Source of the DNA: Escherichia coli
Lineage (GTDB): Bacteria; Pseudomonadota; Gammaproteobacteria; Enterobacterales; Enterobacteriaceae
Strand: one strand, 5' to 3'
NCBI RefSeq assembly: GCF_024502345.1
Contig: NZ_JALDNN010000001.1
Length of the DNA stretch: 64,000 bases
Position numbers and translations under genes: made by a program. The number at the start of each line of letters is the position of its first letter. The stretch's first letter is position 1. The notes beneath the pieces were generated by a model. That model was not told the origin of the DNA. It saw only the letters and a list, made by a program, of their open reading frames with translations, and did no database searches. This document shows positions 21,847 to 49,983 of the stretch, piece by piece.

Positions 21847-21903
21847 ATCCTATCCTTTTGGCCTCTGGAAATAGAGGGCCGACCAGCTGATCGGCCCGAG
21901 GGG

Positions 21904-23094: not shown

Positions 23095-23184
23095 AAAGTC
23101 CCGGTAGTGGAATGACAGGCAAAGTGGTTTATTTCACTGTGACTTGCCAAAGTGATTGGTGTTTTCACAGCTATACCTGGGACT

Positions 23185-23200
23185 AACAATAAGTGTGCCA
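23185..23200 (-). promoter_or_regulatory. weak candidate sigma-54 promoter upstream of ygeW
   Basis: minus-strand sequence TGGCACACTTATTGTT: perfect -24 TGGCAC, but the -12 element is TTGT rather than TTGC; about 100 bp upstream of the ygeW start. Confidence 0.2.
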
Positions 23201-23569
23201 GAATTATCCGCGCGGCTGCAAAAGACTAATTTGACGGATAATGTGTGGGGTTGATCACAAATTGATGCCAGCTTCTGGTTGTTTGTAAAATACGAAAACG
23301 TTTGGCTTTTTTTATCGCGTTATTTATTTGCTGCTAAGTATCAGAAATAAGATAAAGGGGCAGGCTATCTCTCTTCAGTTTGATAAACTCACCGCCGTAA
23401 TTCTCATATTGATATAGAAATGTGATATCTCTTCCATAATTTCATTAGAAAATGATAAAAATCTTATGTTTTTATCAAAGCCAATTTCGCCTGAGTTAAT
23501 ATCATCATGATCTGTGAACCATCAACGTCTTCAATGATCGACTTTTAAGTAAGTCTGGAAGGTAAAGCT

Positions 23570-25348
23570 ATGGAGCTTGCTACTACGCAGTCAGTATTGA
23601 TGCAAATTCAACCGACAATTCAGCGTTTTGCCAGAATGCTTGCCAGCGTTTTGCAGCTTGAGGTTGAGATCGTTGATGAAAACTTGTGTCGCGTCGCCGG
23701 AACGGGCGCGTATGGGAAGTTTCTTGGTCGCCAGTTGAGCGGCAACTCACGCCTGCTCCGCCACGTCCTGGAAACGAAAACTGAAAAAGTTGTGACACAG
23801 TCTCGCTTCGATCCCCTTTGCGAAGGTTGCGATAGTAAAGAAAATTGCCGCGAAAAAGCATTTCTGGGTACGCCTGTCATTTTACAGGATCGTTGTGTTG
23901 GGGTGATAAGTTTGATTGCCGTTACCCACGAGCAACAAGAGCATATCAGTGATAATTTACGCGAATTTTCTGATTATGTTCGCCATATATCCACCATTTT
24001 TGTTTCGAAACTTCTGGAGGATCAGGGGCCAGGAGATAACATCAGTAAAATATTCGCGACCATGATCGATAATATGGATCAGGGCGTATTAGTTGTTGAT
24101 GATGAAAGTCGGGTTCAGTTTGTTAATCAGACTGCCTTAAAAACACTTGGTGTTGTACAAAATAATATTATTGGGAAACCTATCCGTTTCAGACCATTAA
24201 CATTTGAGAGTAATTTTACTCATGGACATATGCAGCATATTGTTTCGTGGGACGATAAAAGTGAATTAATCATTGGTCAATTGCATAACATTCAGGGCCG
24301 ACAATTATTTTTAATGGCATTTCACCAATCGCATACCAGTTTTTCTGTAGCAAATGCACCTGATGAACCACATATTGAACAATTGGTTGGCGAGTGCCGT
24401 GTTATGCGGCAATTAAAACGACTCATTAGCCGTATTGCACCCAGCCCATCCAGCGTTATGGTGGTTGGTGAAAGTGGCACGGGTAAAGAAGTCGTCGCCC
24501 GAGCAATCCATAAGTTGAGCGGAAGACGGAATAAACCCTTTATTGCTATCAACTGTGCCGCGATTCCGGAGCAGCTTCTGGAAAGCGAACTGTTCGGTTA
24601 TGTTAAAGGCGCATTTACTGGCGCTTCTGCCAACGGTAAAACAGGGTTGATTCAGGCGGCGAATACGGGCACGCTGTTTCTCGATGAAATAGGTGATATG
24701 CCATTAATGTTGCAGGCTAAATTACTGCGCGCTATTGAGGCGCGTGAAATTCTGCCGATTGGTGCCAGTAGCCCAATACAAGTCGACATTCGCATCATTT
24801 CTGCAACTAATCAGAATTTGGCCCAGTTCATTGCCGAAGGTAAATTCCGCGAAGATCTCTTCTACCGACTTAATGTTATCCCGATAACTCTGCCACCGCT
24901 GCGTGAACGTCAGGAAGATATTGAACTATTGGTGCATTACTTTTTACATCTGCATACCCGTCGTCTGGGATCGGTTTATCCTGGCATTGCTCCCGATGTC
25001 GTCGAAATATTGCGTAAGCATCGTTGGCCCGGAAACCTGCGCGAGTTAAGCAATTTGATGGAATATCTGGTTAACGTAGTTCCTTCAGGTGAAGTTATCG
25101 ACAGCACGCTATTGCCGCCAAATCTGCTGAATAATGGCACAACGGAGCAAAGTGATGTAACAGAGGTCAGTGAGGCGCACCTGTCACTCGATGATGCGGG
25201 CGGCACGGCGCTGGAGGAGATGGAAAAGCAAATGATCCGCGAGGCGCTTTCACGTCATAACAGCAAGAAGCAAGTTGCTGATGAACTGGGCATCGGCATT
25301 GCTACGCTCTATCGCAAGATTAAGAAATATGAGTTGTTAAACACATAA
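23570..25348 (+). CDS. ygeV: sigma-54-dependent transcriptional activator (bacterial enhancer-binding protein)
   Basis: 592 aa ORF; AAA+ sigma-54 interaction domain with Walker A (GESGTGKE) and GAFTGA motif; C-terminal Fis-type HTH. Confidence 0.85.
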   Translation: MELATTQSVLMQIQPTIQRFARMLASVLQLEVEIVDENLCRVAGTGAYGKFLGRQLSGNSRLLRHVLETKTEKVVTQSRFDPLCEGCDSKENCREKAFLGTPVILQDRCVGVISLIAVTHEQQEHISDNLREFSDYVRHISTIFVSKLLEDQGPGDNISKIFATMIDNMDQGVLVVDDESRVQFVNQTALKTLGVVQNNIIGKPIRFRPLTFESNFTHGHMQHIVSWDDKSELIIGQLHNIQGRQLFLMAFHQSHTSFSVANAPDEPHIEQLVGECRVMRQLKRLISRIAPSPSSVMVVGESGTGKEVVARAIHKLSGRRNKPFIAINCAAIPEQLLESELFGYVKGAFTGASANGKTGLIQAANTGTLFLDEIGDMPLMLQAKLLRAIEAREILPIGASSPIQVDIRIISATNQNLAQFIAEGKFREDLFYRLNVIPITLPPLRERQEDIELLVHYFLHLHTRRLGSVYPGIAPDVVEILRKHRWPGNLRELSNLMEYLVNVVPSGEVIDSTLLPPNLLNNGTTEQSDVTEVSEAHLSLDDAGGTALEEMEKQMIREALSRHNSKKQVADELGIGIATLYRKIKKYELLNT

Positions 25349-25357
25349 CCTCAGTGA

Positions 25358-25381
25358 ATCCGGCCTGAATTCAGGCCGGAT
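25358..25381. terminator. bidirectional stem-loop between convergent ygeV and xdhC
   Basis: perfect inverted repeat ATCCGGCCTGAATTCAGGCCGGAT in the 39-bp gap between the two stop codons. Confidence 0.5.
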
Positions 25382-25387
25382 ATCCTT

Positions 25388-25867
25388 TTACTTCGTTTTC
25401 TCGCAATCCAGAACTGTATTTACAATCATCTGATACCCCGTGCAGCGACAAAGATTTCCCGCCAGTCCGCGACGAATTTCCGTAATGGTTAATGGCTTCT
25501 CGCGTGGTTTCGCCAGCATTGCCGTGGTAGCCATAATCAGGCCAGGCGTACAAAACCCGCACTGCACTGCGCCGGATTTCGCATAAGCCTGCTGAACATG
25601 AGAAAGTTTTCCGCCTTTCGCTTCACCTTCCAGCGTGCGGATCTCTTTTCCTTCAGCCCAGGCGGCAAGGTATAAGCAACTGTCTATTGCTGTGCCGTCG
25701 ACCAACACCGTACAGGCACCACATTCACCCACGCAGCACCCTTGTTTGACACTTAGCAGTCCTTGTTCGCGGAGTAATTCCGAGAGCGGCGTGCCTGGTG
25801 CGGCGTGAAGCTGAAAAGGCATCCCGTTAATGGTGCATTCGATGGTAATTGTTTCGCTGTGATTCAT
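25388..25867 (-). CDS. xdhC: xanthine dehydrogenase 2Fe-2S subunit
   Basis: 159 aa ORF; ferredoxin-like cysteine clusters ([16 protein letters not shown]). Confidence 0.85.
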
Positions 25868-26742
25868 TGCAATTTTCCCCCCGCCGCGGCGACGGCTTCG
25901 CTAATCACTTTTTTGGTCATCGTCTGGATGAGATGCAGACGAAACTCTTTACTGGCCCGCCATGAAGAACGCGGGGCGACATCTTGCAGGACAGATTCGC
26001 TGATAGCTTCCAGCGTTTGCAGGTTTAATGGCGCATTTTGTGCAGTCTGTTCGGCATGTTGGCAGCGAATCGGCGTTGGCGCGGCAACACCAAATGCCAG
26101 GCGTAATTCGCTGAAATTGTCGTTATCCAGTCGGCAATGTGCGGCGCAGCCAATCGTTGAAATATCCATTGCGTCGCGCATGGCATATTTAAAATGCGCG
26201 CTGCCCGCGTGTTCTTTCGGCTGTGGCGGAAAATGAAAGGCGACGAGGATTTCGTCATGCTCAAGAGACACTTTGCCCGGCCCGGTGTGAAAGCCATTAA
26301 TCGGGACGAAACGAACACCGCGCGGGGAGTGGATCTCCAGTTTCGCGTCATAAATTAGCGTTGGCGTGGCAGAATCTGCGCTGGTGGCACCGTTGCAAAT
26401 ATTTCCACCGTAGGTAGCGACGTTACGGATCTGCGGTCCAGCAATGGACGTGGCCGCAGCACATAACGCCGGGAGATGACGTTGAGTTATAGGATCTTCT
26501 ATTAGCTGGGTAAATGTCGTTGCAGAGCCGATACGTAGCGAGCCATCTTCCGCCAGCGTAATTCCCCGCAGCTCCGCCAGATTATGAATATCAACAATAT
26601 GGCGATAACGGTCATTGTGATGGTGGAGCTGAATCAGTACGTCAGTGCCACCGGCGAGCAGTTTGGCCTGCGGGTTGTCAGCCAGCAGGTTGATGGCATC
26701 GGCAAGGGTTGCTGCGCGATGGTAAGAAGCAAAATCAAACAT
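25864..26742 (-). CDS. xdhB: xanthine dehydrogenase FAD-binding subunit
   Basis: 292 aa ORF; stop overlaps the xdhC start. Confidence 0.85.
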
Positions 26743-26752
26743 GATGTTATCC

Positions 26753-29011
26753 TCAAATCAATCCTGCCAGATGGAACTCTTCATATAACCGTTTTGGCGT
26801 CAGCGGCAGTGTATTGATTGCAACACCGGTAGCCATCTTCACCGCGTTACGAATAGCAGCGGCAACAGGAATTATTGGTGGCTCACCCAGTGACTTATGT
26901 CCGTATGCGGATTGCGGCTCATTGATTTCGACGAACGCGCTTTCCAGTTGTGGCAGATCCGGCATGGTCGGCATTTTGTAATCCAGCAGATTGGGGTTAC
27001 GGACCACGCCGCTTTTAGCATCGATGATCATCTCTTCAAATAGCGCCCAGCCAATGCCCATTCCCATTCCGCCGTGTACCTGACCTTCTGCCAGCAGTGG
27101 ATTAAGAATATGCCCTGAATCATGAACGTTGAGGATGCGGTTGATGGTGACTTTGCACAGCGCAATATCGACCGTCAGATCAACAAAGGTACAGCCAAAC
27201 GCCGGTGGGTTAGTGGTGGTTTTGATGGAGCTTTCAGCAGAGAGCTGCCCGCCGCGTTCAGGGTGGTAGAAAGCGTCCATCGCCAAATCTTTTAACGACA
27301 TTAACGGCTCTTCCGGTCGTTCAACCAGCACGATATGGCCTTTTATCAGGGTCAGATTCATCGCTGACTGATGTAGCATGACTGCGGCGTGAGCGATGAT
27401 TTTCTCTTTTAATAATAGTGCCGCACTGCGCAGCGCAGGCGCGGCAACATAGCTCTGGCGTGAGGCAAATGCGCCGGGATCGAACGGCGTAACGTCGGTA
27501 TCTTGAGTTGAAATAACGCGAACGTCGCTGACCGGAACCCCCACGGTTTCTGCCACCATTTGCGAGAAGACGGTGTCGGCACCCTGACCGATTTCCGTCG
27601 CGCCGCTTTGCACGTTGATGGTTCCATCCTGATTCATCAGAAGGCGCGCGCCTGCTATTTCTACGCCGACAGGCCAGGTGTTAGAGGTGTAGCTAAAACA
27701 GGCGACGCCAACGCCGCGGCGCAAATTGCCTTGCTGGTTCTGGCATTCTGCACGGCGTTTTTCCCATTCAAAGATTTTCCGGCCTTTTTCAAGACACTCC
27801 GGCAACCCTGCGCTGTAAATACGTTTGCCCGTGAGCGGATTAGCATCTCCTTCGCGGGCGGCGTTGCGTAAACGAATTTCAACAGGATCAATACCTAACG
27901 CTGTCGCGGCGTCATCAAGCATAGACTCAACGGCAAATACGACTTGTGGCGCGCCATAACCACGCATCGCACCAGCCGAGGGGAGGTTGGTATAGCAGGT
28001 CTTTGAACTGTAAGCGTAGGCACAACGAGGATAAAGGTAAGCGACTTTATTCCCCCCCGCAGAAGCGATGGAGTGCCCGTGAGATGCATAAGCGCCGGTG
28101 TTAGACAGAACATCCAGACTATAACCTTTCAATGTTCCGTCGCGGTTCACGCCCATTTGCCCGTCAATGGTAAAAGCGTGGCGGGTACGGGTTGCGAGGA
28201 AACACTCTTCACGGCTAAGGGAAACTTTCACCGGAATGCCGCCAAGCTTGCTGGTCAGGAATGCCGCCATTGGCTCTTCCAGTACATCCTGTTTATTACC
28301 AAAACCGCCACCGACAAATGGTTTGATGACTCGTACGCATGACCAGGGAATATCCAGCGCCTGACCAACCACGCGGCGAACAATGTGCGGGATCTGGGTG
28401 CTGGAAACGATGGTAATTCGCGAGTCATCCTCCATCCACGCCAGCGATGTTACGCTTTCCATGTGACAATGTTGAATAACGGGGGTCTGATAGTGCCCCT
28501 GTACCTGGTAGTCGGCGGCATCGATTGTTTGTTGGACATTACCCGTCGACATCGTGCTTTGTTTCAGTAAATTGCCACCGTTATGGATTGGTGCAGCGTC
28601 TTCTGCCAGCGCCGCTTCTGGCGTGGTGATAACGGGTAATTCTTGCCACTCAATGCTGACCAATTGCGCCGCTTTTTCTGCCGTGAGTTCATCGCGGGCC
28701 ACGACGATGGCAACGGCGTCACCATGATGACGAACATGGCGAGTTAGCAGTGCGCGATCGGCGGTATCGCGCTTGTTTTCGTCAAGTGTCCAGGCATGCC
28801 CAGCTGTAGCGAATGGAATATCAGGCACATCTTCCCAGGTAAAAATCGCCAGTACGCCCGGCAAACTTCTGGCTTGTTCATCATTAATACTTACGGCATA
28901 ACCATGTGCGATAGGGCTACGTACATATTTCGCATAACACATGCCCGCCATAACATAATCGTCAGTATATCGTGCCCGCCCGGTGACCTTAGCAATGGCA
29001 TCGACGCGCAT
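26753..29011 (-). CDS. xdhA: xanthine dehydrogenase molybdopterin-binding subunit
   Basis: ORF 26753..29050 trimmed to MRVDAIAKVTGRARY...; 752 aa; molybdopterin hydroxylase motifs (GGGFGNK). Confidence 0.85.
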   Translation of the reverse strand: MRVDAIAKVTGRARYTDDYVMAGMCYAKYVRSPIAHGYAVSINDEQARSLPGVLAIFTWEDVPDIPFATAGHAWTLDENKRDTADRALLTRHVRHHGDAVAIVVARDELTAEKAAQLVSIEWQELPVITTPEAALAEDAAPIHNGGNLLKQSTMSTGNVQQTIDAADYQVQGHYQTPVIQHCHMESVTSLAWMEDDSRITIVSSTQIPHIVRRVVGQALDIPWSCVRVIKPFVGGGFGNKQDVLEEPMAAFLTSKLGGIPVKVSLSREECFLATRTRHAFTIDGQMGVNRDGTLKGYSLDVLSNTGAYASHGHSIASAGGNKVAYLYPRCAYAYSSKTCYTNLPSAGAMRGYGAPQVVFAVESMLDDAATALGIDPVEIRLRNAAREGDANPLTGKRIYSAGLPECLEKGRKIFEWEKRRAECQNQQGNLRRGVGVACFSYTSNTWPVGVEIAGARLLMNQDGTINVQSGATEIGQGADTVFSQMVAETVGVPVSDVRVISTQDTDVTPFDPGAFASRQSYVAAPALRSAALLLKEKIIAHAAVMLHQSAMNLTLIKGHIVLVERPEEPLMSLKDLAMDAFYHPERGGQLSAESSIKTTTNPPAFGCTFVDLTVDIALCKVTINRILNVHDSGHILNPLLAEGQVHGGMGMGIGWALFEEMIIDAKSGVVRNPNLLDYKMPTMPDLPQLESAFVEINEPQSAYGHKSLGEPPIIPVAAAIRNAVKMATGVAINTLPLTPKRLYEEFHLAGLI

Positions 29012-29105
29012 GCATGATTCACCCGTAGCGGTTGCTTCCCGCGCTTCCATAGAAATCCCCTCGATTTGAACATTTGGTTCTTATGGCAAAGATTTAGTCT
29101 AAGCA

Positions 29106-31139: not shown

Positions 31140-31169
31140 TGATCCTACCCACGTAATATGGACACAGGC

Positions 31170-32036
31170 CTAAGCGAGGTTCTGGTTTTCAAATTGTTCC
31201 GGACTGAGGCCGCCACACCAACTGTGCCGCCGCCACCGATTGTAATCACATTCGATATAATTAAACACCGTTGCCCGCATTATTTCCCGGCTGATAAAGT
31301 GTTCTCCATGGATACATTCCACTTTCAGCGAATGAAAGAAGCTTTCCACGCAGGCATTATCGTAGCAGCAACCTTTTGCGCTCATACTTCCACGCAGATT
31401 ATGCCGCTTCAGTTGCGCCTGATAATCTGCTGAACAGTACTGGCCTCCACGGTCCGTGTGAACGATAACGTTCCGGGGCCTCTTACGCCGCCACAGCGCC
31501 ATCTGCAGGGCATCGCAGGCCAGTTGCGCCGTCATGCGTGGCGACATTGACCAGCCAATAACGGCACGTGACCACAGGTCAATGACCACTGCCAGATACA
31601 GCCAGCCTTCATCTGTACGTAAGTACGTGATGTCTCCTGCCCACTTCTGGTTCGGGCCACTGGCGTAAAAATCCTGCTCCAACAGATTTTCTGACACAGG
31701 CAGGCCGTGTGCGCGGTAGCTGACCGGGCTGAACTTCCGGGAGGCCTTTGCCCTCAGTCCCTGACGGCGCAGGCTTGCCGCCACGGTTTTTACGTTAAAG
31801 GGGTAACCCTGAGCACGCAGTTCATCCGTCAGGCGTGGGGCACCGTAACGCTGTTTTGACCGGGTAAAAGCCGCGAGGACAACGCTGTCGCAGTGTTGGC
31901 GGAACTGCTGACGCGTGCTTATCCTTGTCCGCCGCTGACACCACGTATACCAGCCGCTGCGGGCCACCCGGAGCACGCGGCACATTGCTTTGATGCTGAA
32001 CTCAGCCTGATGTTTTTCAATAAAGACATACTTCAT
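31170..32036 (-). CDS. insF: IS3 transposase OrfB (DDE integrase domain)
   Basis: 288 aa ORF matching IS3 InsF ([32 protein letters not shown]...). Confidence 0.9.
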
Positions 32037-32062
32037 TTCAGGCGCTTCGCGAAGTATGTCGC

Positions 32063-33283
32063 TGTAGATTCAATTGGTCAACGCAACAGTTATGTGAAAA
32101 CATGGGGTTGCGGAGGTTTTTTGAATGAGACGAACATTTACAGCAGAGGAAAAAGCCTCTGTTTTTGAACTATGGAAGAACGGAACAGGCTTCAGTGAAA
32201 TAGCGAATATCCTGGGTTCAAAACCCGGAACGATCTTCACTATGTTAAGGGATACTGGCGGCATAAAACCCCATGAGCGTAAGCGGGCTGTAGCTCACCT
32301 GACACTGTCTGAGCGCGAGGAGATACGAGCTGGTTTGTCAGCCAAAATGAGCATTCGTGCGATAGCTACTGCGCTGAATCGCAGTCCTTCGACGATCTCA
32401 CGTGAAGTTCAGCGTAATCGGGGCAGACGCTATTACAAAGCTGTTGATGCTAATAACCGAGCCAACAGAATGGCGAAAAGGCCAAAACCGTGCTTACTGG
32501 ATCAAAATTTACCATTGCGAAAGCTTGTTCTGGAAAAGCTGGAGATGAAATGGTCTCCAGAGCAAATATCAGGATGGTTAAGGCGAACAAAACCACGTCA
32601 AAAAACGCTGCGAATATCACCTGAGACAATTTATAAAACGCTGTACTTTCGTAGCCGTGAAGCGCTACACCACCTGAATATACAGCATCTGCGACGGTCG
32701 CATAGCCTTCGCCATGGCAGGCGTCATACCCGCAAAGGCGAAAGAGGTACGATTAACATAGTGAACGGAACACCAATTCACGAACGTTCCCGAAATATCG
32801 ATAACAGACGCTCTCTGGGGCATTGGGAGGGCGATTTAGTCTCAGGTACAAAAAACTCTCATATAGCCACACTTGTAGACCGAAAATCACGTTATACGAT
32901 CATCCTTAGACTCAGGGGCAAAGATTCTGTCTCAGTAAATCAGGCTCTTACCGACAAATTCCTGAGTTTACCGTCAGAACTCAGAAAATCACTGACATGG
33001 GACAGAGGAATGGAACTGGCCAGACATCTAGAATTTACTGTCAGCACCGGCGTTAAAGTTTACTTCTGCGATCCTCAGAGTCCTTGGCAGCGGGGAACAA
33101 ATGAGAACACAAATGGGCTAATTCGGCAGTACTTTCCTAAAAAGACATGTCTTGCCCAATATACTCAACATGAACTAGATCTGGTTGCTGCTCAGCTAAA
33201 CAACAGACCGAGAAAGACACTGAAGTTCAAAACACCGAAAGAGATAATTGAAAGGGGTGTTGCATTGACAGATTGAATCTACA
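32063..33283 (+). mobile_element. IS30 insertion sequence (1221 bp) with 2-bp GC target-site duplication
   Basis: terminal repeats TGTAGATTCAATTGGTCAACGC (32063) and its complement ending ...GATTGAATCTACA (33283); flanking GC at 32061..32062 and 33284..33285. Confidence 0.9.
32125..33276 (+). CDS. insI: IS30 transposase
   Basis: 383 aa ORF (MRRTFTAEEKASVFELWKNGTGFSEIANILG...), DDE transposase. Confidence 0.9.
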   Translation: MRRTFTAEEKASVFELWKNGTGFSEIANILGSKPGTIFTMLRDTGGIKPHERKRAVAHLTLSEREEIRAGLSAKMSIRAIATALNRSPSTISREVQRNRGRRYYKAVDANNRANRMAKRPKPCLLDQNLPLRKLVLEKLEMKWSPEQISGWLRRTKPRQKTLRISPETIYKTLYFRSREALHHLNIQHLRRSHSLRHGRRHTRKGERGTINIVNGTPIHERSRNIDNRRSLGHWEGDLVSGTKNSHIATLVDRKSRYTIILRLRGKDSVSVNQALTDKFLSLPSELRKSLTWDRGMELARHLEFTVSTGVKVYFCDPQSPWQRGTNENTNGLIRQYFPKKTCLAQYTQHELDLVAAQLNNRPRKTLKFKTPKEIIERGVALTD

Positions 33284-33555
33284 GCGGCCTTTTGGAGGAT
33301 AGCCAGCTCTTCATCCCGTTCTGCCAGCTGGCGTTTGAGACGTGCAATCTCGGTAGACATCTCCAGTTCACGTTCAGAAGACGTCTGCTGATTTTGCTGT
33401 TTACTGCGCCAGTTGTAGAGCTGTGATTCATACAGGCTGAGTTCACGGGCTGCGGCAGTAACACCGATGCGTTCAGCAAGCTTCAGGGCTTCACTGCGAA
33501 ATTCAGGCGAATGCTGTTTACGGGGTTTTTTACTGGTTGATACTGTTTTTGTCAT
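33284..33555 (-). pseudogene. insE: IS3 OrfA (InsE), 3'-disrupted by the IS30 insertion
   Basis: translation MTKTVSTSKKPRKQHSPEFRSEALKLAERIGV...AILQKAA, then reading continues into the IS30 end. Confidence 0.7.
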
Positions 33556-33620
33556 GTGAGTCACCTCTGACTGAGAGTTTACTCACTTAGCCGCGTGTCC
33601 ACTATTGCTGGGTAAGATCA

Positions 33621-34231
33621 TAGATGCTACGGATATCCATATCCAGAACTTCAGCAATCTGATATGGATTATAACCAGAAACCATATACCCCATTATGGT
33701 GAATTCCATCTGAGTTAATGTGTTACCTCTGGTAAATGATAAATAACGACCAATAAATAGTTGTCTGATCTTTTCATTGGCAACATCAAGACCATCATCA
33801 TTATATATGACAGCAGATATTGCTGAGTTGTGTTTTCGCCAGTAATTAGCTAACGATTGCATATTGCGGTCGCTGACTAAAACAATCCCCATGTCAGTAC
33901 TTGCAAGATAGTCAATCCAGTCTTTTTCAAGGAATAGACGTAAAAAACTTACTGAAAAATCGACAAAAATATATCCGCTTAATCTCGCATTGTGGTTTTT
34001 AGTTAAGATACCTTCTACCACACCACGATTAAAATATGAACTTTCTTCGGGCCACATACAAAAACACGAGTTTGCGCAGTACTGCAAACGCGGTGACTCT
34101 TCTGGCATTATTTGGCAATGCATTGAGCAACTATTGCATGTAAGACTTTTATAACGACTACAAAGCCCCATGTTAAGAACCTCCCTATCCGTATATAATT
34201 GCATAATTTCATTGGTGATTGATGATGTCAA
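33621..34231 (-). pseudogene. LuxR-type HTH regulator (yqeH-like), C-terminally truncated by the IS3 insertion
   Basis: ORF 33602..34231 has a GerE/LuxR-like HTH at its C-terminus (LTQMEFTIMGYMVSGYNPYQIAEVLDMDIRSI); its last 6 codons and stop are supplied by IS3 sequence. Confidence 0.5.
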
Positions 34232-34630
34232 TACACCATGATTTTGTAATTTTGCTGGGAAAAATTGCGATTAATCTGTATTTGCTATAATTCTGATTAA
34301 GACATTTTAAAATGCATTTCTCGTTATTAAATATGATTATGTTTCACTGATTTAATCTTACCTGGTTGAGGGTGGTTCAGATAACTATCTCATGGTATGA
34401 GAATATCTATATCGCAAATTGTTTTTGAATGACCAGAAGATATCTTGCGAATCTAAGTTATGCATCTTAAATGGTCTTATTTAAGATGTTCAGATCTCTT
34501 TGTGTGTTTAACTAACTGATAATACTAGGATATGATGAGAGAAGTGATAGGGCGGAATAATAACGAATGAACATTATGAAAACTGGAATGGTTCAAAATT
34601 GTAGCAATTTTGAACCATTCACAATGGATA

Positions 34631-34864
34631 TCAGCTAAAGAACATTACCGATACGCACAGGATACCCACGATCAGCGTAATCAGATTTCCGATGGAACGC
34701 CAGGGTTTAAGCGCCGGGATCAGATACGTTGACAACGTAGGCATGATGAAAAGTATCATGGCAATGAGCGGGCCGCTGATCGCGTAAATCATCGAAATCG
34801 CGTTCGGGTTAATGCAACAAACAATGAAGGTGATCAGCGATACCAACATAATTGATAGTGCGCG
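34631..34864 (-). pseudogene. 3' fragment of a membrane transporter gene (yqeG-like), 5' part replaced by the IS903-family element
   Basis: 78 codons of hydrophobic C-terminal sequence ending at a stop codon; the reading frame upstream runs straight into the IS terminal repeat. Confidence 0.5.
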
Positions 34865-35922
34865 GGGCTTTGTTGAATAAATCGAACTTTTGCTGAGTTG
34901 AAGGATCAGATCACGTATCTTCCCGACAACGCAGACCGTTCCGTGGCAAAGCAAAAGTTCAAAATCACCAACTGGCCCACCTACAATAAAGCCCTCATCA
35001 ACCGTGGCTCCATAACTTTCTGGCTGGATGATGAAGCTATTCAGGCCTGGTATGAGTCAGCAACACCTTCTTCACGAGGCAGACCTCAGCGCTATTCTGA
35101 CCTTGCCATCACGACTGTGCTGGTCATTAAACGCGTATTCAGGCTGACCCTGCGCGCTGCGCAGGGCTTTATTGATTCCATTTTTTCTCTGATGAACGTT
35201 CCGCTACGCTGCCCGGATTACAGCTGTGTCAGCAGGCGGGCAAAGTCGGTTAATGTCAGTTTCAAAACGCCCACCCGGGGTGAAATCGCACACCTGGTAA
35301 TTGATTCCACCGGGCTGAAGGTCTTCGGTGAAGGCGAGTGGAAAGTCAAAAAGCATGGCCAGGAACGCCGCCGTATCTGGCGTAAGCTGCATCTCGCCGT
35401 TGACAGTAAAACACATGAAATCATCTGCGCTGACCTGTCGCTGAACAACGTTACGGACTCAGAGGCCTTCCCCGGGTTAATCCGGCAAACCCACCGGAAA
35501 ATCAGGTCAGCCGCCGCCGATGGCGCTTACGATACCCGGCTATGTCACGATGAACTGCGGCGTAAGAAAATCAGCGCGCTTATCCCTCCCCGAAAAGGTG
35601 CGGGTTACTGGCCCGGTGAATATGCAGACCGTAACCGTGCAGTGGCTAATCAGCGAATGACCGGGAGTAATGCGCGGTGGAAATGGACAACAGATTACAA
35701 CCGTCGCTCGATAGCGGAAACGGCGATGTACCGGGTAAAACAGCTGTTCGGGGGTTCACTGACACTGCGTGACTACGATGGTCAGGTTGCAGAGGCTATG
35801 GCCCTGGTACGAGCGCTGAACAAAATGACGAAAGCAGGTATGCCTGAAAGCGTGCGTATTGCCTGAAAACACAACCCGCTACGGGGGAGACTTACCCGAA
35901 ATCTGATTTATTCAACAAAGCC
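34865..35922 (+). mobile_element. IS903-group (IS5 family) insertion sequence, 1058 bp, no target-site duplication
   Basis: 18-bp terminal inverted repeats GGCTTTGTTGAATAAATC at both ends (34865 and, as complement, ending 35922); flanking 9-mers differ (TAGTGGCGG vs CATTCTTCT). Confidence 0.9.
34898..35866 (+). CDS. IS903-family DDE transposase
   Basis: 322 aa ORF containing ...AADGAYDTRLCHDELRRKKISALIPPRKGAGYWPGEY...; the true start may be an internal Met. Confidence 0.85.
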   Translation: MKDQITYLPDNADRSVAKQKFKITNWPTYNKALINRGSITFWLDDEAIQAWYESATPSSRGRPQRYSDLAITTVLVIKRVFRLTLRAAQGFIDSIFSLMNVPLRCPDYSCVSRRAKSVNVSFKTPTRGEIAHLVIDSTGLKVFGEGEWKVKKHGQERRRIWRKLHLAVDSKTHEIICADLSLNNVTDSEAFPGLIRQTHRKIRSAAADGAYDTRLCHDELRRKKISALIPPRKGAGYWPGEYADRNRAVANQRMTGSNARWKWTTDYNRRSIAETAMYRVKQLFGGSLTLRDYDGQVAEAMALVRALNKMTKAGMPESVRIA

Positions 35923-35942
35923 CATTCTTCTTACTTTTATGA

Positions 35943-35966
35943 CCCTGCCGCATGGCAGGGTTTTTT
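35943..35966 (+). terminator. intrinsic terminator, presumably the remnant 3' end of the deleted upstream gene (kduD in the reference arrangement)
   Basis: stem CCCTGCCGCATGGCAGGG followed by TTTTTT, 20 bp after the IS right end. Confidence 0.5.
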
Positions 35967-36133
35967 ATATCTGTAGATCATCATAATCCATATCATGGTT
36001 ATGAAATAATCCATATCAATTATCAATTAATGAACTTTATGAATTTTATCTGCTGTAAAATTAGGTGATTAATAATAATATCAATAATTCAACTTAATTT
36101 GAAAATTGGAATATCCATCACATAACGACATGT

Positions 36134-36194
36134 CGTAGCAATTTAATCCATATTTATGCTGTTTCCGACCTGACACCTGTGTGAGTTGTTCACG
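36134..36194 (+). promoter_or_regulatory. araE promoter region with AraC-type and CRP-type binding sites
   Basis: TAGCAATTTAATCCATA resembles the araI1 half-site TAGCATTTTTATCCATA; TGTGAGTTGTTCACG matches the CRP consensus TGTGA-N6-TCACA; 40 to 100 bp upstream of araE. Confidence 0.45.
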
Positions 36195-36231
36195 TATTTT
36201 TTCACTATGTCTTACTCTCTGCTGGCAGGAA

Positions 36232-37653
36232 AAAATGGTTACTATCAATACGGAATCTGCTTTAACGCCACGTTCTTTGCGGGATACGCGGCGTATGAAT
36301 ATGTTTGTTTCGGTAGCTGCTGCGGTCGCAGGATTGTTATTTGGTCTTGATATCGGCGTAATCGCCGGAGCGTTGCCGTTCATTACCGATCACTTTGTGC
36401 TGACCAGTCGTTTGCAGGAATGGGTGGTTAGTAGCATGATGCTCGGTGCAGCAATTGGTGCGCTGTTTAATGGTTGGCTGTCGTTCCGCCTGGGGCGTAA
36501 ATACAGCCTGATGGCGGGGGCCATCCTGTTTGTACTCGGTTCTATAGGGTCCGCTTTTGCGACCAGCGTAGAGATGTTAATCGCCGCTCGTGTGGTGCTG
36601 GGCATTGCTGTCGGGATCGCGTCTTACACCGCTCCTCTGTATCTTTCTGAAATGGCAAGTGAAAACGTTCGCGGTAAGATGATCAGTATGTACCAGTTGA
36701 TGGTCACACTCGGCATCGTGCTGGCGTTTTTATCCGATACAGCGTTCAGTTATAGCGGTAACTGGCGCGCAATGTTGGGGGTTCTTGCTTTACCAGCAGT
36801 TCTGCTGATTATTCTGGTGGTCTTCCTGCCAAATAGCCCGCGCTGGCTGGCGGAAAAGGGGCGTCATATTGAGGCGGAAGAAGTATTGCGTATGCTGCGC
36901 GATACGTCGGAAAAAGCGCGAGAAGAACTCAACGAAATTCGTGAAAGCCTGAAGTTAAAACAGGGCGGTTGGGCACTGTTTAAGATCAACCGTAACGTCC
37001 GTCGTGCTGTGTTTCTCGGTATGTTGTTGCAGGCGATGCAGCAGTTTACCGGTATGAACATCATCATGTACTACGCGCCGCGTATCTTCAAAATGGCGGG
37101 CTTTACGACCACAGAACAACAGATGATTGCGACTCTGGTCGTAGGGCTGACCTTTATGTTCGCCACCTTTATTGCGGTGTTTACGGTAGATAAAGCAGGG
37201 CGTAAACCGGCTCTGAAAATTGGTTTCAGCGTGATGGCGTTAGGCACTCTGGTGCTGGGCTATTGCCTGATGCAGTTTGATAACGGTACGGCTTCCAGTG
37301 GCTTGTCCTGGCTCTCTGTTGGCATGACGATGATGTGTATTGCCGGTTATGCGATGAGCGCCGCGCCAGTGGTGTGGATCCTGTGCTCTGAAATTCAGCC
37401 GCTGAAATGCCGCGATTTCGGTATTACCTGTTCGACCACCACGAACTGGGTGTCGAATATGATTATCGGCGCGACCTTCCTGACGCTGCTCGACAGCATT
37501 GGCGCTGCCGGTACGTTCTGGCTCTACACTGCGCTGAACATTGCGTTTGTGGGCATCACTTTCTGGCTCATTCCGGAAACCAAAAATGTCACGCTGGAAC
37601 ATATCGAACGCAAACTGATGGCAGGCGAGAAGTTGAGAAATATCGGCATCTGA
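36232..37653 (+). CDS. araE: arabinose:H+ symporter (MFS sugar porter)
   Basis: 472 aa; [50 protein letters not shown]...; the ORF track's extended start 36181 is rejected. Confidence 0.9.
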
Positions 37654-37659
37654 TTTCAC

Positions 37660-37691
37660 GGGCCGGATGTGCTGTACATCCGGCCCTTTTT
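37660..37691 (+). terminator. intrinsic terminator of araE
   Basis: GGGCCGGATGT-loop-ACATCCGGCCC followed by TTTTTT immediately after the araE stop. Confidence 0.6.
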
Positions 37692-37781
37692 TCGTTAATA
37701 GAGATCGGGCACTTGGCCGTTGAGGCGTTTGTCTCGTTCCTTATTCAGCCTTGTTGCGGTAACACACATCAGGAGAGAGGA

Positions 37782-38474
37782 ATGAAAACAATTGGTTTGC
37801 TGGGAGGAATGAGCTGGGAATCCACCATTCCTTACTATCGTTTGATAAATGAAGGCATTAAACAGCGGCTTGGTGGGCTTCACTCTGCGCAAGTGCTGCT
37901 ACATAGCGTCGATTTTCATGAAATAGAAGAGTGCCAGCGTCGCGGGGAATGGGATAAAACCGGGGACATTCTGGCTGAGGCGGCGCTTGGCTTACAGCGG
38001 GCGGGCGCAGAAGGTATTGTGTTATGTACCAATACGATGCATAAAGTGGCGGATGCCATTGAGTCACGTTGCACTCTGCCTTTCTTACACATTGCGGATG
38101 CCACCGGACGTGCAATTACCGGGGCCGGAATGACTCGTGTGGCGCTGCTGGGTACGCGTTACACCATGGAACAGGATTTTTATCGCGGGCGGCTGACGGA
38201 ACAATTTTCCATCAATTGTCTTATTCCTGAAGCGGATGAACGGGCGAAGATTAATCAGATTATTTTTGAAGAACTGTGTCTGGGGCAATTCACCGAAGCG
38301 TCACGCACTTATTATGCGCAAGTGATTGCTCGCCTGGCAGAACAGGGGGCGCAGGGTGTCATTTTTGGCTGCACAGAGATTGGTTTACTGGTGCCAGAAG
38401 AGCGCAGTGTTCTGCCTGTGTTTGATACTGCGGCGATCCATGCCGAGGATGCTGTCGCTTTTATGCTGTCGTAG
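37782..38474 (+). CDS. ygeA: Asp/Glu/hydantoin racemase-family protein
   Basis: 230 aa from the ATG at 37782 ([23 protein letters not shown]...), preceded by a GGAGAGAGG ribosome-binding site; the longer ORF from 37407 is a frame run-through. Confidence 0.85.
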
Positions 38475-39396
38475 CTGACGACAGAATAGCGTCAAGAGAA
38501 GTGACCAGTTTCGGTAATCCCGCTTGTAAATGCTCACTAAACGCCTGCACCAGCGCTGATGACGGGCGATGCAGAGGGCGGATCAGGCTGACGGTAAACG
38601 GAACCGCAATACTGAACCGCCGCACCACTAAACCGCTTGCCGCATAATCCAGTGCGGTGAGCGGGTTAACCACCGAAACACCTACCCCCGTCCGTACCAT
38701 TGCGCACACTGACGCGGCGCTGTGGGTTTCTACGATCATGCGTCGTTTAACCTGATGTTCAGTAAATAGCTGATCCAGCAACTGGCGATAGCTGTCAGTA
38801 CGGGAAAGGCTGATGTAGTTCTCACCCTGAAAATCATCCGGCGTTAATACCTTTTTTACCGCCAGCGGATGACCCGGAGGTAACACACACACTTCATCTA
38901 AAGAGAGTAATTCAGTACGTTCTGTTCCCGCAGGCGTATGGAGTGTCTCAGTGAGTCCTAAATCATGACGCTGTGCCGAGAGCCACTCTTCAAGTAGCGG
39001 TGATTCCTGGGGCACAATATTTAAGCTGACATCGGGATAACGTGCCAGAAAGGGTTGCAGGAGCTGCGGTAAAAAAGATTGCGAAAAGACCGGCAGGCAG
39101 GCAATAGACAGTTCTCCCTGGCGAAACTCGCGCAGACTTTCTGCGGCGCTGACAATGCGATCCAGTCCGTACCAGGATCGTTGCACTTCTTCAAACAGAC
39201 GCAGTCCTTGCACGGTAGGATGTAATCGTCCACGTACGCGCTCAAACAATTTCAGCCCGATCACCTTCTCAAAGCGCGCCAGTTCGCGGCTGACGGTTGG
39301 CTGTGAGGTGTGTAGCAGGTGTGCTGCCTCAGTCAGGCTTCCGGCGGTCATTACCGCATGAAAAATTTCAATATGACGTAAGTTAACGGCGGCCAT
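38461..39396 (-). CDS. lysR: LysR-family transcriptional activator of lysA
   Basis: 311 aa; N-terminal HTH ([43 protein letters not shown]); divergent from lysA. Confidence 0.9.
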
Positions 39397-39517
39397 TAGC
39401 GCTCTCTCGCAATCCGGTAATCCATATCATTTTTGCATAGACTCGACATAAATCGATATTTTTTATTCTTTTTATGATGTGGCGTAATCATAAAAAAGCA
39501 CTCATCTGGAGTTTGTT

Positions 39518-40780
39518 ATGCCACATTCACTGTTCAGCACCGATACCGATCTCACCGCCGAAAATCTGCTGCGTTTGCCCGCTGAATTTGGCTGCCCGGT
39601 GTGGGTCTACGATGCGCAAATTATTCGTCGGCAGATTGCAGCGCTGAAACAGTTTGATGTGGTGCGCTTTGCACAGAAAGCCTGTTCCAATATTCATATT
39701 TTGCGATTAATGCGTGAGCAGGGCGTGAAAGTGGATTCCGTCTCGTTAGGCGAAATAGAGCGTGCGTTGGCGGCGGGTTACAATCCGCAAACGCACCCCG
39801 ATGATATTGTTTTTACGGCAGATGTTATCGATCAGGCGACGCTTGAACGCGTCAGTGAATTGCAAATTCCGGTGAATGCGGGTTCTGTTGATATGCTCGA
39901 CCAACTGGGCCAGGTTTCGCCAGGGCATCGGGTATGGCTGCGCGTTAACCCGGGGTTTGGTCACGGACATAGCCAAAAAACCAATACCGGTGGCGAAAAC
40001 AGCAAGCACGGTATCTGGTACACCGATCTGCCCGCCGCACTGGACGTGATACAACGTCATCATCTGCAGCTGGTCGGCATTCACATGCACATTGGTTCTG
40101 GCGTTGATTATGCCCATCTGGAACAGGTGTGTGGTGCTATGGTACGTCAGGTCATCGAATTCGGTCAGGATTTACAGGCTATTTCTGCAGGCGGTGGGCT
40201 TTCTATTCCTTATCAACAGGGTGAAGAGGCGGTTGATACCGAGCATTATTATGGTCTGTGGAATGCCGCGCGTCAGCAAATCGCCCGCCATTTGGGCCAC
40301 CCTGTGAAACTGGAAATTGAACCGGGTCGCTTTCTGGTAGCGCAGTCTGGCGTGTTAATTACTCAGGTGCGGAGCGTCAAACAAATGGGTAGCCGCCACT
40401 TTGTGCTGGTTGATGCCGGGTTCAACGATCTGATGCGCCCGGCAATGTACGGTAGTTACCACCATATCAGTGCCCTGGCAGCTGATGGTCGTTCTCTGGA
40501 ACACGCGCCAACGGTGGAAACCGTCGTCGCCGGGCCATTATGTGAATCGGGCGATGTCTTTACCCAGCAGGAAGGGGGAAATGTTGAAACCCGCGCCTTG
40601 CCGGAAGTGAAGGCGGGTGATTATCTGGTACTGCATGATACAGGGGCATATGGCGCATCAATGTCATCCAACTACAACAGCCGTCCGCTGTTACCAGAAG
40701 TTCTGTTTGATAATGGTCAGGCGCGGTTGATTCGCCGTCGCCAGACCATCGAAGAATTACTGGCGCTGGAATTGCTTTAA
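39518..40780 (+). CDS. lysA: diaminopimelate decarboxylase
   Basis: 420 aa PLP-dependent decarboxylase (fold-type III). Confidence 0.9.
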   Translation: MPHSLFSTDTDLTAENLLRLPAEFGCPVWVYDAQIIRRQIAALKQFDVVRFAQKACSNIHILRLMREQGVKVDSVSLGEIERALAAGYNPQTHPDDIVFTADVIDQATLERVSELQIPVNAGSVDMLDQLGQVSPGHRVWLRVNPGFGHGHSQKTNTGGENSKHGIWYTDLPAALDVIQRHHLQLVGIHMHIGSGVDYAHLEQVCGAMVRQVIEFGQDLQAISAGGGLSIPYQQGEEAVDTEHYYGLWNAARQQIARHLGHPVKLEIEPGRFLVAQSGVLITQVRSVKQMGSRHFVLVDAGFNDLMRPAMYGSYHHISALAADGRSLEHAPTVETVVAGPLCESGDVFTQQEGGNVETRALPEVKAGDYLVLHDTGAYGASMSSNYNSRPLLPEVLFDNGQARLIRRRQTIEELLALELL

Positions 40781-40786
40781 CTGCGG

Positions 40787-41818
40787 TTAGTCGCTGGTTG
40801 CATGATGACTGGCCTCCAGCGACGGAGTTGACACTGAATGGCGACGTACCAGCGTCGGACTAAAGACATTAGTGATTTCCGGGAGAGGGCGATTATCCGC
40901 CAGCGCCAAAGCCAGTTCGGCAGCCTGGGTCGCCATCGTCACGATTGGGTAACGCACGGTGGTCAGGCGCGGGCGCACATAGCGTGACACCAGCACATCA
41001 TCAAAGCCAATTAACGAAATTTCGCCCGGTACATCAATACCATTATCATTGAGAACGCCCATCGCACCCGCCGCCATTGAATCGTTATAACAGGCTACCG
41101 CAGTGAAATTTCTTCCTCGTCCCAAAAGCTCGGTCATTGCCTGTTCGCCGCCGCTTTCGTCTGGTTCGCCAAATGTCACCAGCCGATCATTGGCCGGAAT
41201 ACCACTTTCAGCAAGGGCATCGTAATACCCTTGCAGACGATCTTCGGCGTCAGAAATAGAGTGGTTAGAGCACAGATAACCAATGCGGGTATGACCTTGC
41301 TGAATTAAATGACGCGTTGCCAGCCAGGCACCGTAACGATCGTCAAGAGCAATACAACGGTTTTCAAAGCCAGGCAGGATACGGTTGATCAGCACCATAC
41401 CGGGCATTTGTTTCATTAATGAGGCTAAATCGGCATCCGGGATCATTTTGGCATGGACGACCAACGCAGCACAGCGATGGCGGATCAGTTGCTCAATAGC
41501 CTGACGCTCTTTTTGTTCGTTGTGGTAACCGTTGCCAATCAATAAGAAATTACCGGTGTGATAAGCCACCTGTTCGACCGCTTTCACCATTGCACCGAAA
41601 AACGGATCGGAAACATCACCAACGACCAGACCGACCGTTTCAGTGGTCTGCTGCGCCAGCGCACGGGCGTTGGCGTTCGGGTGATAGCTAAGAGACTCCA
41701 TTGCACTATGCACAGCCAGCCGGGACGCTTCGCTGGCTTTGGGTGAATTATTAATGACGCGGGAAACGGTGGCGACTGAAACGCCTGCCAGTCGGGCTAC
41801 ATCCTTTATGGTCGCCAT
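40787..41818 (-). CDS. galR: galactose repressor (LacI family)
   Basis: 343 aa; N-terminal HTH MATIKDVARLAGVSVATVSRVINN. Confidence 0.9.
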   Translation of the reverse strand: MATIKDVARLAGVSVATVSRVINNSPKASEASRLAVHSAMESLSYHPNANARALAQQTTETVGLVVGDVSDPFFGAMVKAVEQVAYHTGNFLLIGNGYHNEQKERQAIEQLIRHRCAALVVHAKMIPDADLASLMKQMPGMVLINRILPGFENRCIALDDRYGAWLATRHLIQQGHTRIGYLCSNHSISDAEDRLQGYYDALAESGIPANDRLVTFGEPDESGGEQAMTELLGRGRNFTAVACYNDSMAAGAMGVLNDNGIDVPGEISLIGFDDVLVSRYVRPRLTTVRYPIVTMATQAAELALALADNRPLPEITNVFSPTLVRRHSVSTPSLEASHHATSD

Positions 41819-42031
41819 GAAAATACCTTAGTGGGTAAACGCTTACATTCTTTCAGTGTTACGGAAAACGCCCGTTGGTTCAAGGGGCGGCGTGTTTTCA
41901 TCGTGGGAATGTGAGCCAAACGCAAATAAGTAAGACAAAAAAAGAGATTGCAAACCTTTGGTTACACTTTGCGAAACGCTGTTGCGATTGACCGCTGGTG
42001 GCGTTTGGCTTCAGGTTGCTAAAGTGGTGAT

Positions 42032-42114
42032 CCCAGAGGTATTGATAGGTGAAGTCAACTTCGGGTTGAGCACATGAATTACACCAGCCTGCGCAGATGC
42101 GCAGGTTTTTTTTT
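42032..42114 (+). ncRNA. omrB: small regulatory RNA OmrB
   Basis: CCCAGAGGTATTGATAGGTGAAGTCAACTTCGGG...CCTGCGCAGATGCGCAGG followed by a T-run; shares conserved 5' and 3' ends with the adjacent OmrA copy. Confidence 0.85.
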
Positions 42115-42228
42115 GCCGGTCATCAAACTGTAACAGTAACCGACAATTTACACACCTCGTTGCATTTCCCTTCATTCCTTTGCGTTTTCTCGCTGGCGAA
42201 GAGTCGTCGTGCAGACCACAATCAAGAT

Positions 42229-42316
42229 CCCAGAGGTATTGATTGGTGAGATTATTCGGTACGCTCTTCGTACCCTGTCTCTTGCACCAACCTGCGCGGA
42301 TGCGCAGGTTTTTTTT
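42229..42316 (+). ncRNA. omrA: small regulatory RNA OmrA
   Basis: CCCAGAGGTATTGATTGGTGAGATTATTCGGTACGC...CCTGCGCGGATGCGCAGG followed by a T-run; terminator hairpin plus poly-U. Confidence 0.85.
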
Positions 42317-42382
42317 CGCACCTAATTTACTGTCGCTCGCGTTCTTTATCTCGTGTAATCTCCCTCCATTCGCTTTTACTGA

Positions 42383-45749
<3,367 letters not shown>

Positions 45750-45755
45750 TATTTA

Positions 45756-45777
45756 ACGCCGGTTTTAACCGGCGTTA
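45756..45777. terminator. bidirectional stem-loop between convergent lplT and tas
   Basis: inverted repeat AACGCCGGTTTTAACCGGCGTT. Confidence 0.5.
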
Positions 45778-45780
45778 ATC

Positions 45781-46821
45781 TTATGGTGCCGGATAAGTAT
45801 AAACCTGATGCACCGCTTCAATTTCAGCTAATACGTCTTCGCTTAACTCCAGATGCAAACTTTCGATGTTAGTTTTCAGCTGATCCATCGTGGTTGCGCC
45901 CAGCAGAGTGCTGGCAACAAACGGTTGACGGCGTACAAACGCGAGCGCCATCTGAGCAGGGTCCAGGCCATGACGTCTGGCGATATCAACATACGCCGCG
46001 ACGGCTTTTTGCGTTTGCTCACCGCTATAGCGGGTGAACCGACTAAAGAGCGTATTACGTGCGCCAGCGGGTTTTGCACCATTGAGATATTTCCCGGTCA
46101 GCGTGCCGAAACCCAGGCACGAATAGGCCAGCAGTTCGACCCCTTCATACTGGCTGACTTCTGCCAGACCTACTTCAAAACTGCGGTTTAACAGACTGTA
46201 AGGGTTCTGAATGGTGACAATACGCGGCAGATCGTGTTTGTCCGCCAGATGCAGGTAGCGCATTACGCCAAATGCAGTTTCGTTCGACACGCCGATATAA
46301 CGAATTTTTCCCGCGCGTTGGTACTCTGCCAGTGCGTCCAGCGTATCCAGCAGCGAAACCGCAGGCGCAGAATCCGTCCAGCTATAACCGAGTTTGCCGA
46401 AGCAGTTGGTCGGGCGCTGCGGCCAGTGCACCTGATAAAGATCGAGGTAATCAGTCTGTAGGCGCTTGAGGCTGTCATGCAGCGCTTCGCGGATATTCTT
46501 CCGATCCAGCGCCTGATCCGGGCGGATGCCCTTGTCATTATTGCGCGACGGTCCGCTCACTTTGGAGGCGATAATTAACTTTTCGCGGCTGCCATGTTTC
46601 GCCAGCCAGTTGCCGACGTAGGTTTCGGTTAACCCTTGCGTTTCGGGGCGCGGAGGTACTGGGTACATTTCGGCAACGTCGATAAGGTTAATGCCCTGAG
46701 CGACGGCATAGTCGAGTTGTGCGTGGGCGTCGGCTTCGCTGTTCTGTTCACCAAACGTCATCGTGCCAAGCCCCAGCGTGCTGACTTCCAGCGAACTGTG
46801 GGGTATACGGTGATATTGCAT
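45781..46821 (-). CDS. tas: aldo-keto reductase
   Basis: 346 aa; AKR family. Confidence 0.9.
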   Translation of the reverse strand: MQYHRIPHSSLEVSTLGLGTMTFGEQNSEADAHAQLDYAVAQGINLIDVAEMYPVPPRPETQGLTETYVGNWLAKHGSREKLIIASKVSGPSRNNDKGIRPDQALDRKNIREALHDSLKRLQTDYLDLYQVHWPQRPTNCFGKLGYSWTDSAPAVSLLDTLDALAEYQRAGKIRYIGVSNETAFGVMRYLHLADKHDLPRIVTIQNPYSLLNRSFEVGLAEVSQYEGVELLAYSCLGFGTLTGKYLNGAKPAGARNTLFSRFTRYSGEQTQKAVAAYVDIARRHGLDPAQMALAFVRRQPFVASTLLGATTMDQLKTNIESLHLELSEDVLAEIEAVHQVYTYPAP

Positions 46822-46928
46822 AGCCGTTTCCTTTTTATAATCACGACATAAGGAATATAAAAATGGCAGAGGGAAGGGAAAAGGGAAAGAGAAAAATCTT
46901 AAGGCCAGCCGGATGCTGACCTTATTTG

Positions 46929-47147
46929 TTAACGTTCAATAATTTGCGAAACATCATCACGGTTAATTTGCATCGCGTTACCTTGCTGATCGTGATAACT
47001 CACCAGCCCGGTATCATCATCAATTTCAGGTTTTCCATCGGTCAAAATCATACGGCCATCTTTGGTCGCCATGACGTAATCACTGGAACACCCGGAAACA
47101 GCAAACGCCAGTCCGACTGCAGAAATTATTACTGCCCATTTTTTCAT
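46929..47147 (-). CDS. ygdR: small lipoprotein
   Basis: 72 aa; signal peptide with lipobox (AVSGCSS). Confidence 0.85.
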
Positions 47148-47284
47148 CCGGTTATCCTCATTTGGCCTACCTATGATAATAGTCTGTTTATAAACCGACG
47201 TTATATATCTTGAAAGCAGGAAAATCTTAAACTGTGAGGGTAAAAGGAGTGAGTACGCCCTCCCGCAGGAGAGCGTACGGAGTA

Positions 47285-47998
47285 TCAGAGCGGATTCTTT
47301 TTGTTGCGAATCAAGTTGAGGCTTTCAACCGCAATAGAGAAGAACATCGCGAAGTAGATGTAACCTTTCGGTACGTGGATGTCGAAACTTTCCAGAATCA
47401 GGGTAAAGCCCACCAGAATCAGGAAAGAGAGCGCCAGCATTTTTACCGAAGGATGGCGTTCGACAAAATCACCAATCGAGCGCGCGGCGAACATCATCAC
47501 GCCTACGGCAATCACCACGGCTGCCATCATAATAAACAGGTGATCTGACAGACCCACAGCCGTAATCACCGAGTCGAGGCTAAAGATAATATCCAGCAGC
47601 ATAATCTGCACGATAGCGCCGAGGAATGATGAAACGCGTGTTTTCAGCCCTTCTTCTTCACCTTCAATGGATTCGTGGATTTCCTTGCTGGCTTTCCAGA
47701 TAAGGAACAAGCCACCCAGAAGCAGAATCAAATCACGGGCAGAAATTTCCTGACTGAATATTGTAAAAAGCGGATTTGTCAGGCGCGTAACCCAGGCGAT
47801 TGATGCCAGCAGCGCCAGACGCATAACCATGGCTCCCGCCAACCCCAGACGGCGCGCATGAGCACGTTGTGCTGTGGGAAGCTTTGCCACCACCAGAGAA
47901 AGGAAAATAATATTGTCGATCCCAAGAACGATCTCCAGCAGCGTCAGCGTACCGAGCGCAAGCCAGGCGTTAGGATCGGTTATCCATGCAAATAACAT
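47285..47998 (-). CDS. ygdQ: TerC-family inner membrane protein
   Basis: 237 aa polytopic membrane ORF. Confidence 0.85.
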
Positions 47999-48066
47999 CT
48001 AAAAAGCCCTGCCAAAAAAATGAAGCGGTAATTATATGCCCGGAAAGCGGCAGGTCAAAGCGATGG

Positions 48067-48756: not shown

Positions 48757-48944
48757 GTCATGATACCTTGATTAAAAAACAAACAGCAATTATGTGCCGA
48801 ATATTCGCAGTGTAACTTTTTCCACATGTGTTGTTCAATTCTCTGATTTATATTGCTTTTTAGGCTGCCGGTAATCGAGTTGCGCAACACTGCAATAGGT
48901 TTTCCAAATCTGGTCACTGAAAATAAACAGGATCTTACACCATG

Positions 48945-49971: not shown

Positions 49972-49983
49972 GTCACGCCAATT

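Follow-up and report, generated by a model that had tools for sequence, protein, structure and literature searches.

Deletions bordered by insertion sequences (IS) are a well-described outcome of the activity of IS903 and its relatives. Adjacent deletions produced by IS903 are common and have been tied to the replicative (cointegrate) pathway, at least as this is summarised in PMC11708052 with reference to Weinert et al. 1983, and the deletions of Weinert, Schaus and Grindley (1983), as summarised there, left the IS intact, removed the DNA at one of its ends and were not accompanied by a duplication. Insertion followed by an adjacent deletion has also been the explanation given for all 14 of the 14 IS-plus-deletion events without duplications that were recovered in a long-term evolution experiment (PMC11708052). 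The same paper documents a new IS903-subgroup copy in E. coli C, which was found centred in a 62-kb deletion, had no duplication and arose within one overnight culture (PMC11708052).

The case presented here comes from a 64,000-nucleotide stretch of an Escherichia coli genome (referred to as the window throughout, with positions counted from its first letter), in which a lone IS903B copy occupies the place of 4.3 kb of sequence upstream of araE, and events of this sort, IS-associated deletions, form a well-known class. As in the deletions of 1983, in the summary of PMC11708052, the IS is intact, the DNA at one end is gone and no duplication is seen, but in that laboratory work, done on plasmids, the structure at the outset was known, whereas the mechanism at the present locus has to be deduced from the end product. 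As in E. coli C, the target duplication is missing from an IS903-subgroup copy that lies at a deletion, although the E. coli C element is an IS5 of 1,051 bp with 14-bp repeats that was newly copied overnight, and what is at hand here is a 4.3-kb deletion in a natural genome. With the IS903B copies known from plasmids, the window copy has in common the 1,057-bp sequence, the 18-bp repeats and the 307-aa DDE transposase; simple IS903B insertions, however, leave a 9-bp duplication, which the window copy does not have.

An IS903B copy without a target-site duplication

The element and its immediate flanks comprise the following features:

34857..34865, no strand: left flanking 9-mer AGTGCGCGG, which differs from the right 9-mer
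34866..35922, + strand: IS903B (IS5 family, IS903 group), complete, 1,057 bp, identified by whole-length identity to plasmid copies
34866..34883, + strand: left 18-bp terminal inverted repeat GGCTTTGTTGAATAAATC, its end matching those of six sibling copies
34943..35866, + strand: transposase gene, intact, GTG start, 307 aa, recognised by NF033579, by identity to WP_001118619.1 and by its DDE residues
35905..35922, - strand: right 18-bp terminal inverted repeat, its end likewise matching those of six sibling copies
35923..35931, no strand: right flanking 9-mer CATTCTTCT, which starts 2 bp past the kduD stop codon in references

All of the features that mark membership of the IS903 group (length, 18-bp repeats, a 307-aa DDE open reading frame (ORF) and near-identity to IS903B) are present, and the element is, judging by its sequence, IS903B: its 1,057 bp match, with 100% identity throughout, copies annotated as IS903B on plasmids of Citrobacter, Salmonella and E. 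coli. This identity to plasmid copies being complete along the whole length, the element shows no mosaic structure and its arrival was probably recent. It is the only IS903 copy within the 64-kb window. The transposase shows 0 differences from WP_001118619.1, an “IS903B family transposase” (locus L007, strain DDG206), and its match to the IS5-family model NF033579 of NCBIfam reaches 357 bits, where the cutoff is 140 bits. Residues D121, D193 and E259, found in the expected contexts VIDSTG, AADGAYD and SIAETAM, are what we take to be the DDE triad, in the numbering of the IS903 literature. A start at TTG 34898, which is the one given for this gene in the program-made ORF list, would yield an alternative product of 322 aa.

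A preliminary description of this DNA had already pointed to a complete IS903-group element with 18-bp repeats and an intact transposase ORF, and the ends, the NF033579 score and the DDE residues agree with it in all but the length, which was put at 1058 bp and is 1,057 bp when measured. That description had also stated that the flanking 9-mers differ and that a duplication is absent, both of which hold, the left 9-mer having, however, been given as “TAGTGGCGG”, a misreading of AGTGCGCGG.

The 9-bp target-site duplication expected around 34866..35922 is absent (AGTGCGCGG on the left versus CATTCTTCT on the right). An error in placing the element boundaries is not the reason, since perfect 9-bp direct repeats were found at six out of six control IS903-group copies that other E. 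coli carry around yqeI, yqeH and yqeG, each of them scored with an end definition identical to that used for the window copy. The duplication is a property of the insertion event, not of the IS903B element per se.

Elements of this group have entered the same area more than once, as no fewer than six insertions of the IS903 group, independent of one another and bordered by different, perfect 9-bp duplications, were seen within ~2.5 kb among 5,426 complete genomes (loci L001, L002, L004, L005, L006 and L007, with the joining of hits in the search favouring one orientation). Their sites are distributed over the yqeI-yqeH spacer, yqeH, the yqeH-yqeG spacer and yqeG (two inside the latter), which corresponds to ~33600..34865 in the window. 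The yqeI-yqeG stretch, going by these positions, looks like an insertion hot spot for the IS903 group, and such a hot spot would fit the finding that AT-rich, H-NS-bound DNA captures IS903 (PMC11335895).

Breakpoints and the missing 4,347 bp

The order of genes in reference E. coli is yqeH(-), yqeG(-), yqeF(+), kduI(+), kduD(+) and araE(+), in agreement with the K-12 arrangement that the preliminary description had given for this place (yqeG, yqeF, kduI and kduD). What is left on the yqeG side of the element is the following:

34586..34620, - strand: terminator-like hairpin just 3' of the yqeG stop, native and kept, with a 16-pair stem and a T-rich tail
34631..34865, - strand: yqeG 3' stump (amino acid permease), last 77 codons and stop, delimited by TIGR00814, TdcC-type models and reference alignments

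The flanks of the window and those of strain YJ6 share 99.9% identity; when 33620..34865 is aligned to this strain, the left breakpoint falls at window position 34865, which is yqeG nucleotide 235 from the 3' end; the right breakpoint, at window position 35923, is the third base past the kduD stop codon of the same strain. Both are unchanged across 17 reference loci (YJ6 and 16 others), and the loss of kduI, kduD and yqeF from the locus, as it had been proposed, is evident from the alignment to these 17 loci. The missing sequence amounts to 4,347 bp and consists of the 5' 995 bp of yqeG, the whole of yqeF, kduI and kduD, and the first 2 bp that follow the kduD stop, which means that the flanks of IS903B are collinear, same-orientation reference sequences that are normally 4.3 kb apart. 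The yqeG stump matches the C-terminal end of the TIGR00814 and TdcC-type transporter models and reads as a pseudogene remnant.

Both junctions are clean to the base and hold no filler DNA. A comparison of the two breakpoints in the reference sequence gave no microhomology of note, as would be expected if a transposase or an IS, and not slippage, had brought about the event. Neither does the 4,347-bp segment occur elsewhere in the 64-kb window. One could still argue that the deletion was made by the assembler, in that two IS903B copies surrounding an intact yqeG'-yqeF-kduI-kduD segment were collapsed into one, or that the segment sits elsewhere in the genome, and repeats of ~1 kb can indeed be collapsed by assemblers; yet the cleanness of both junctions speaks against such an artefact, as does the fact that the window runs through an IS3 and an IS30 unbroken, suggesting a repeat-resolved assembly, and that short-read assemblers normally break contigs at IS and seldom bridge them. 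This reading is, in our opinion, highly improbable.

Distribution among sequenced genomes and predicted consequences

Counting a genome as positive at a coverage of at least 80%, 5,412 of the 5,426 complete RefSeq E. coli genomes carry the 4,347-bp segment, and kduD is next to araE in 10 of the 10 contexts among the exact-AraE matches listed. A query of the two flanks joined without an IS showed that they never come within 1.7 kb of each other in the 5,426 genomes, and neither IS903B junction was found in these genomes; exact junction 34-/40-mers were likewise not found in a 100,044-species genome collection and a metagenome collection. No relative with a 9-bp repeat at both IS ends and no genome with naturally adjacent flanks was thus encountered, these being the two observations that the preliminary description had named as speaking against its own reading. 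The allele is new in the sense of being absent from all the genomes searched, and is a strain-private variant of otherwise ordinary biology.

The flanks of the window are 99.6-100% identical to E. coli strains, with the 1.2 kb left of IS903B being 100% identical to four strains, and the best identity for 35923..60000 (a 24 kb core) among the 5,426 complete E. coli genomes being 99.6%. A Shigella origin of the window was considered as well; the reading of the locus would be the same in either case. Since the closest complete genomes reach only this 99.6% over the right 24 kb, the source lineage appears to be poorly represented among complete genomes. Local similarity is patchy, and recombination may be the cause.

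Given the absence of the segment within the 64-kb window, the strain is predicted to be without the KduI/KduD hexuronate route, the YqeF thiolase and the YqeG permease, i.e., without the products of four genes that are nearly universal in E. coli (5,412/5,426 complete genomes). On galacturonate or glucuronate, osmotically stressed E. coli have been reported to grow more poorly when deficient in kduID (PMC3578941), and the phenotype to be expected here would be the same as for that kduID mutant, namely, weaker growth on galacturonate/glucuronate when osmotically stressed (PMC3578941). As far as annotation is concerned, the IS903B deletion accounts for both a yqeG fragment and an “orphan” terminator upstream of araE.

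How the deletion may have arisen

The structure, with its intact IS, missing duplication and collinear flanks 4.3 kb apart, is directly visible, and from it we infer the route. The two mechanisms brought forward in the preliminary description, a transposase-mediated adjacent deletion and recombination between two IS copies, were the right candidates, with both leading to the same end product. We consider the insertion of IS903B, followed by a transposase-mediated adjacent deletion, to be the likeliest origin, because a single insertion is all that it needs. A plasmid-type IS903B would have entered this E. coli chromosome by a simple insertion into either site, where 9 bp of the target were duplicated; an intramolecular replicative transposition, driven by the IS903B transposase, would then have led into a second site 4.3 kb away (the “adjacent deletion”), as a result of which the IS would have been kept and joined to a new 9-bp target, while the intervening DNA would have been freed as a non-replicating circle and lost. 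The intermediate, in which the IS and its duplication are present at either site and the 4.3 kb are kept, was not found in the 5,426 genomes or in the two collections. The published IS903 target motif WTTYA-N9-TRAAW, when scored at both breakpoints, gives 6/10 and 5/10, with the six real insertions scoring 2-7/10 and the background having its mode at 3-4.

Recombination, on the other hand, would start from two IS903B copies of like orientation that had inserted independently and were each bordered by a 9-bp duplication, the first at AGTGCGCGG within yqeG, the second at CATTCTTCT, 2 bp past kduD, between which a RecA-dependent exchange would have removed one copy together with the 4.3 kb. The product predicted in this way (left flank A, one IS, right flank B) is exactly the one observed, such recombination is a recognised cause of missing duplications, and this AT-rich area does attract IS903-group elements (the at least six independent insertions above, two inside yqeG). 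It would require, however, that two same-orientation insertions had taken place within 4.3 kb, which is less parsimonious than one insertion and one transposase step, and neither of the two sites, the kduD-proximal one and the one in yqeG, is occupied by an IS903 in any of the 5,426 genomes; the window, moreover, has but a single IS903 copy. Such a history is rather unlikely.

The E. coli C case suggests yet another route, in which the IS would have been captured into a chromosomal break in one step as the 4.3 kb were being lost, with no staggered cut ever having been made and no duplication ever having existed. The 62-kb deletion of that strain, with its new IS copy, has the same type of end structure (PMC11708052), but one-step capture is a hypothesis even there, as two successive events are allowed for as well, and nothing in the sequence of the present locus separates capture from the two classical routes; besides, its junctions show neither the microhomology nor the filler DNA that would speak for it. 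We hold such a capture to be improbable, although, if true, it would provide, in a wild genome, a counterpart to what has been observed once in the laboratory in E. coli C. The adjacent deletion stays our preferred account, as the one-insertion route.

The retained upstream region of araE

Downstream of the element, the following features have been kept:

35941..35968, + strand: kduD intrinsic terminator, left after the loss of kduD, with a 9-bp G+C-rich stem, a 4-nt loop and a T-run
36136..36152, + strand: motif TAGCAATTTAATCCATA, AraC half-site-like, part of the native promoter region of araE, kept, found by motif match
36235..37653, + strand: araE (arabinose-proton symporter), intact, 472 aa, the exact protein occurring in thousands of E. 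coli assemblies

The hairpin of the kduD terminator (35941..35962) has a predicted folding energy of -16.9 kcal/mol (z = -4.63), and none of 200 shuffled sequences folds as well (0/200). Its existence past the right IS end had been noted correctly, albeit at a distance of 20 bp, which turned out to be 19 bp. The exact AraE protein is listed in 20,903 blocks of the protein collection, and the araE ATG at 36235 is 312 bp past the end of IS903B, the intervening DNA being native. The AraC half-site-like motif at 36136..36152 is the only match in the window, and we presume it to be an AraC site by analogy with the half-site consensus TAGC-N7-TCCATA.

The transposase does read toward araE, as had been pointed out, but the polar or outward-transcription effect on araE that was thought possible on these grounds seems unlikely, with a strong terminator and ~270 bp of native upstream DNA lying in between. 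A consensus scan for an outward promoter facing araE between IS903B and the terminator found none. One candidate at the right IS end was considered and rejected, as its best -10 (picked by eye) is without an A at position 2, and also since its transcript would meet the terminator at once. With the kduD terminator in place and the araE upstream region kept in full, the regulation of araE is probably unchanged and need not be suspected when this allele is met with.

Just past the kduD terminator, ATAATCCATATCA occurs twice, 23 bp apart (35983..35995 and 36006..36018), and its core, TAATCCATAT, recurs in the AraC half-site-like motif (36144..36153). Both copies of ATAATCCATATCA are native sequence, being present in the references too, and could be extra TCCATA-type AraC half-sites.

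Other IS-associated losses around the ETT2 island

Further to the left in the window, at a ygeQ'/'yqeH junction where nearly the whole of ETT2 is missing, there is an IS3 (31140..33620, - strand; 1,258 bp without its insert), within which an IS30 of 1,221 bp is nested (32063..33283, flanked by a 2-bp GC repeat). No 3-bp target duplication accompanies this IS3 (its left neighbour is TTC, its right neighbour TAG), for which reason the loss of ETT2 in the window would appear to be IS-associated as well. YJ6 (locus L003), the closest genome at the locus, has the same ygeQ'/'yqeH junction without the IS3 and with 4 + 2 flanking bases missing, a state that is consistent with a later loss of the IS3 through GA microhomology.

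Strain FDAARGOS_944 (locus L018, 4288..5180) has an IS1A between glyU (tRNA-Gly) and a 3' yqeF stump, with ETT2, yqeH, yqeG and most of yqeF gone, and this is an independent IS-associated deletion that enters these core genes from the opposite direction. The IS1A of FDAARGOS_944 and the IS3 of the window differ from the IS903B case in that other IS families and other breakpoints are involved, and in that kduI and kduD have been kept there. The IS903B deletion is in keeping with these neighbouring losses, by which IS have eroded the surroundings of the ETT2 island, and adds a further documented case in which such erosion has spread from the island into neighbouring core genes.

YJ6 itself also carries an IS1A (12292..13430 of its locus), which lies between uacT and actS, and it lacks a block that starts with the gene following uacT and ends with xdhA, which in the window is present at ~3,900..29,050; this absence is another large IS-associated difference in the neighbourhood.
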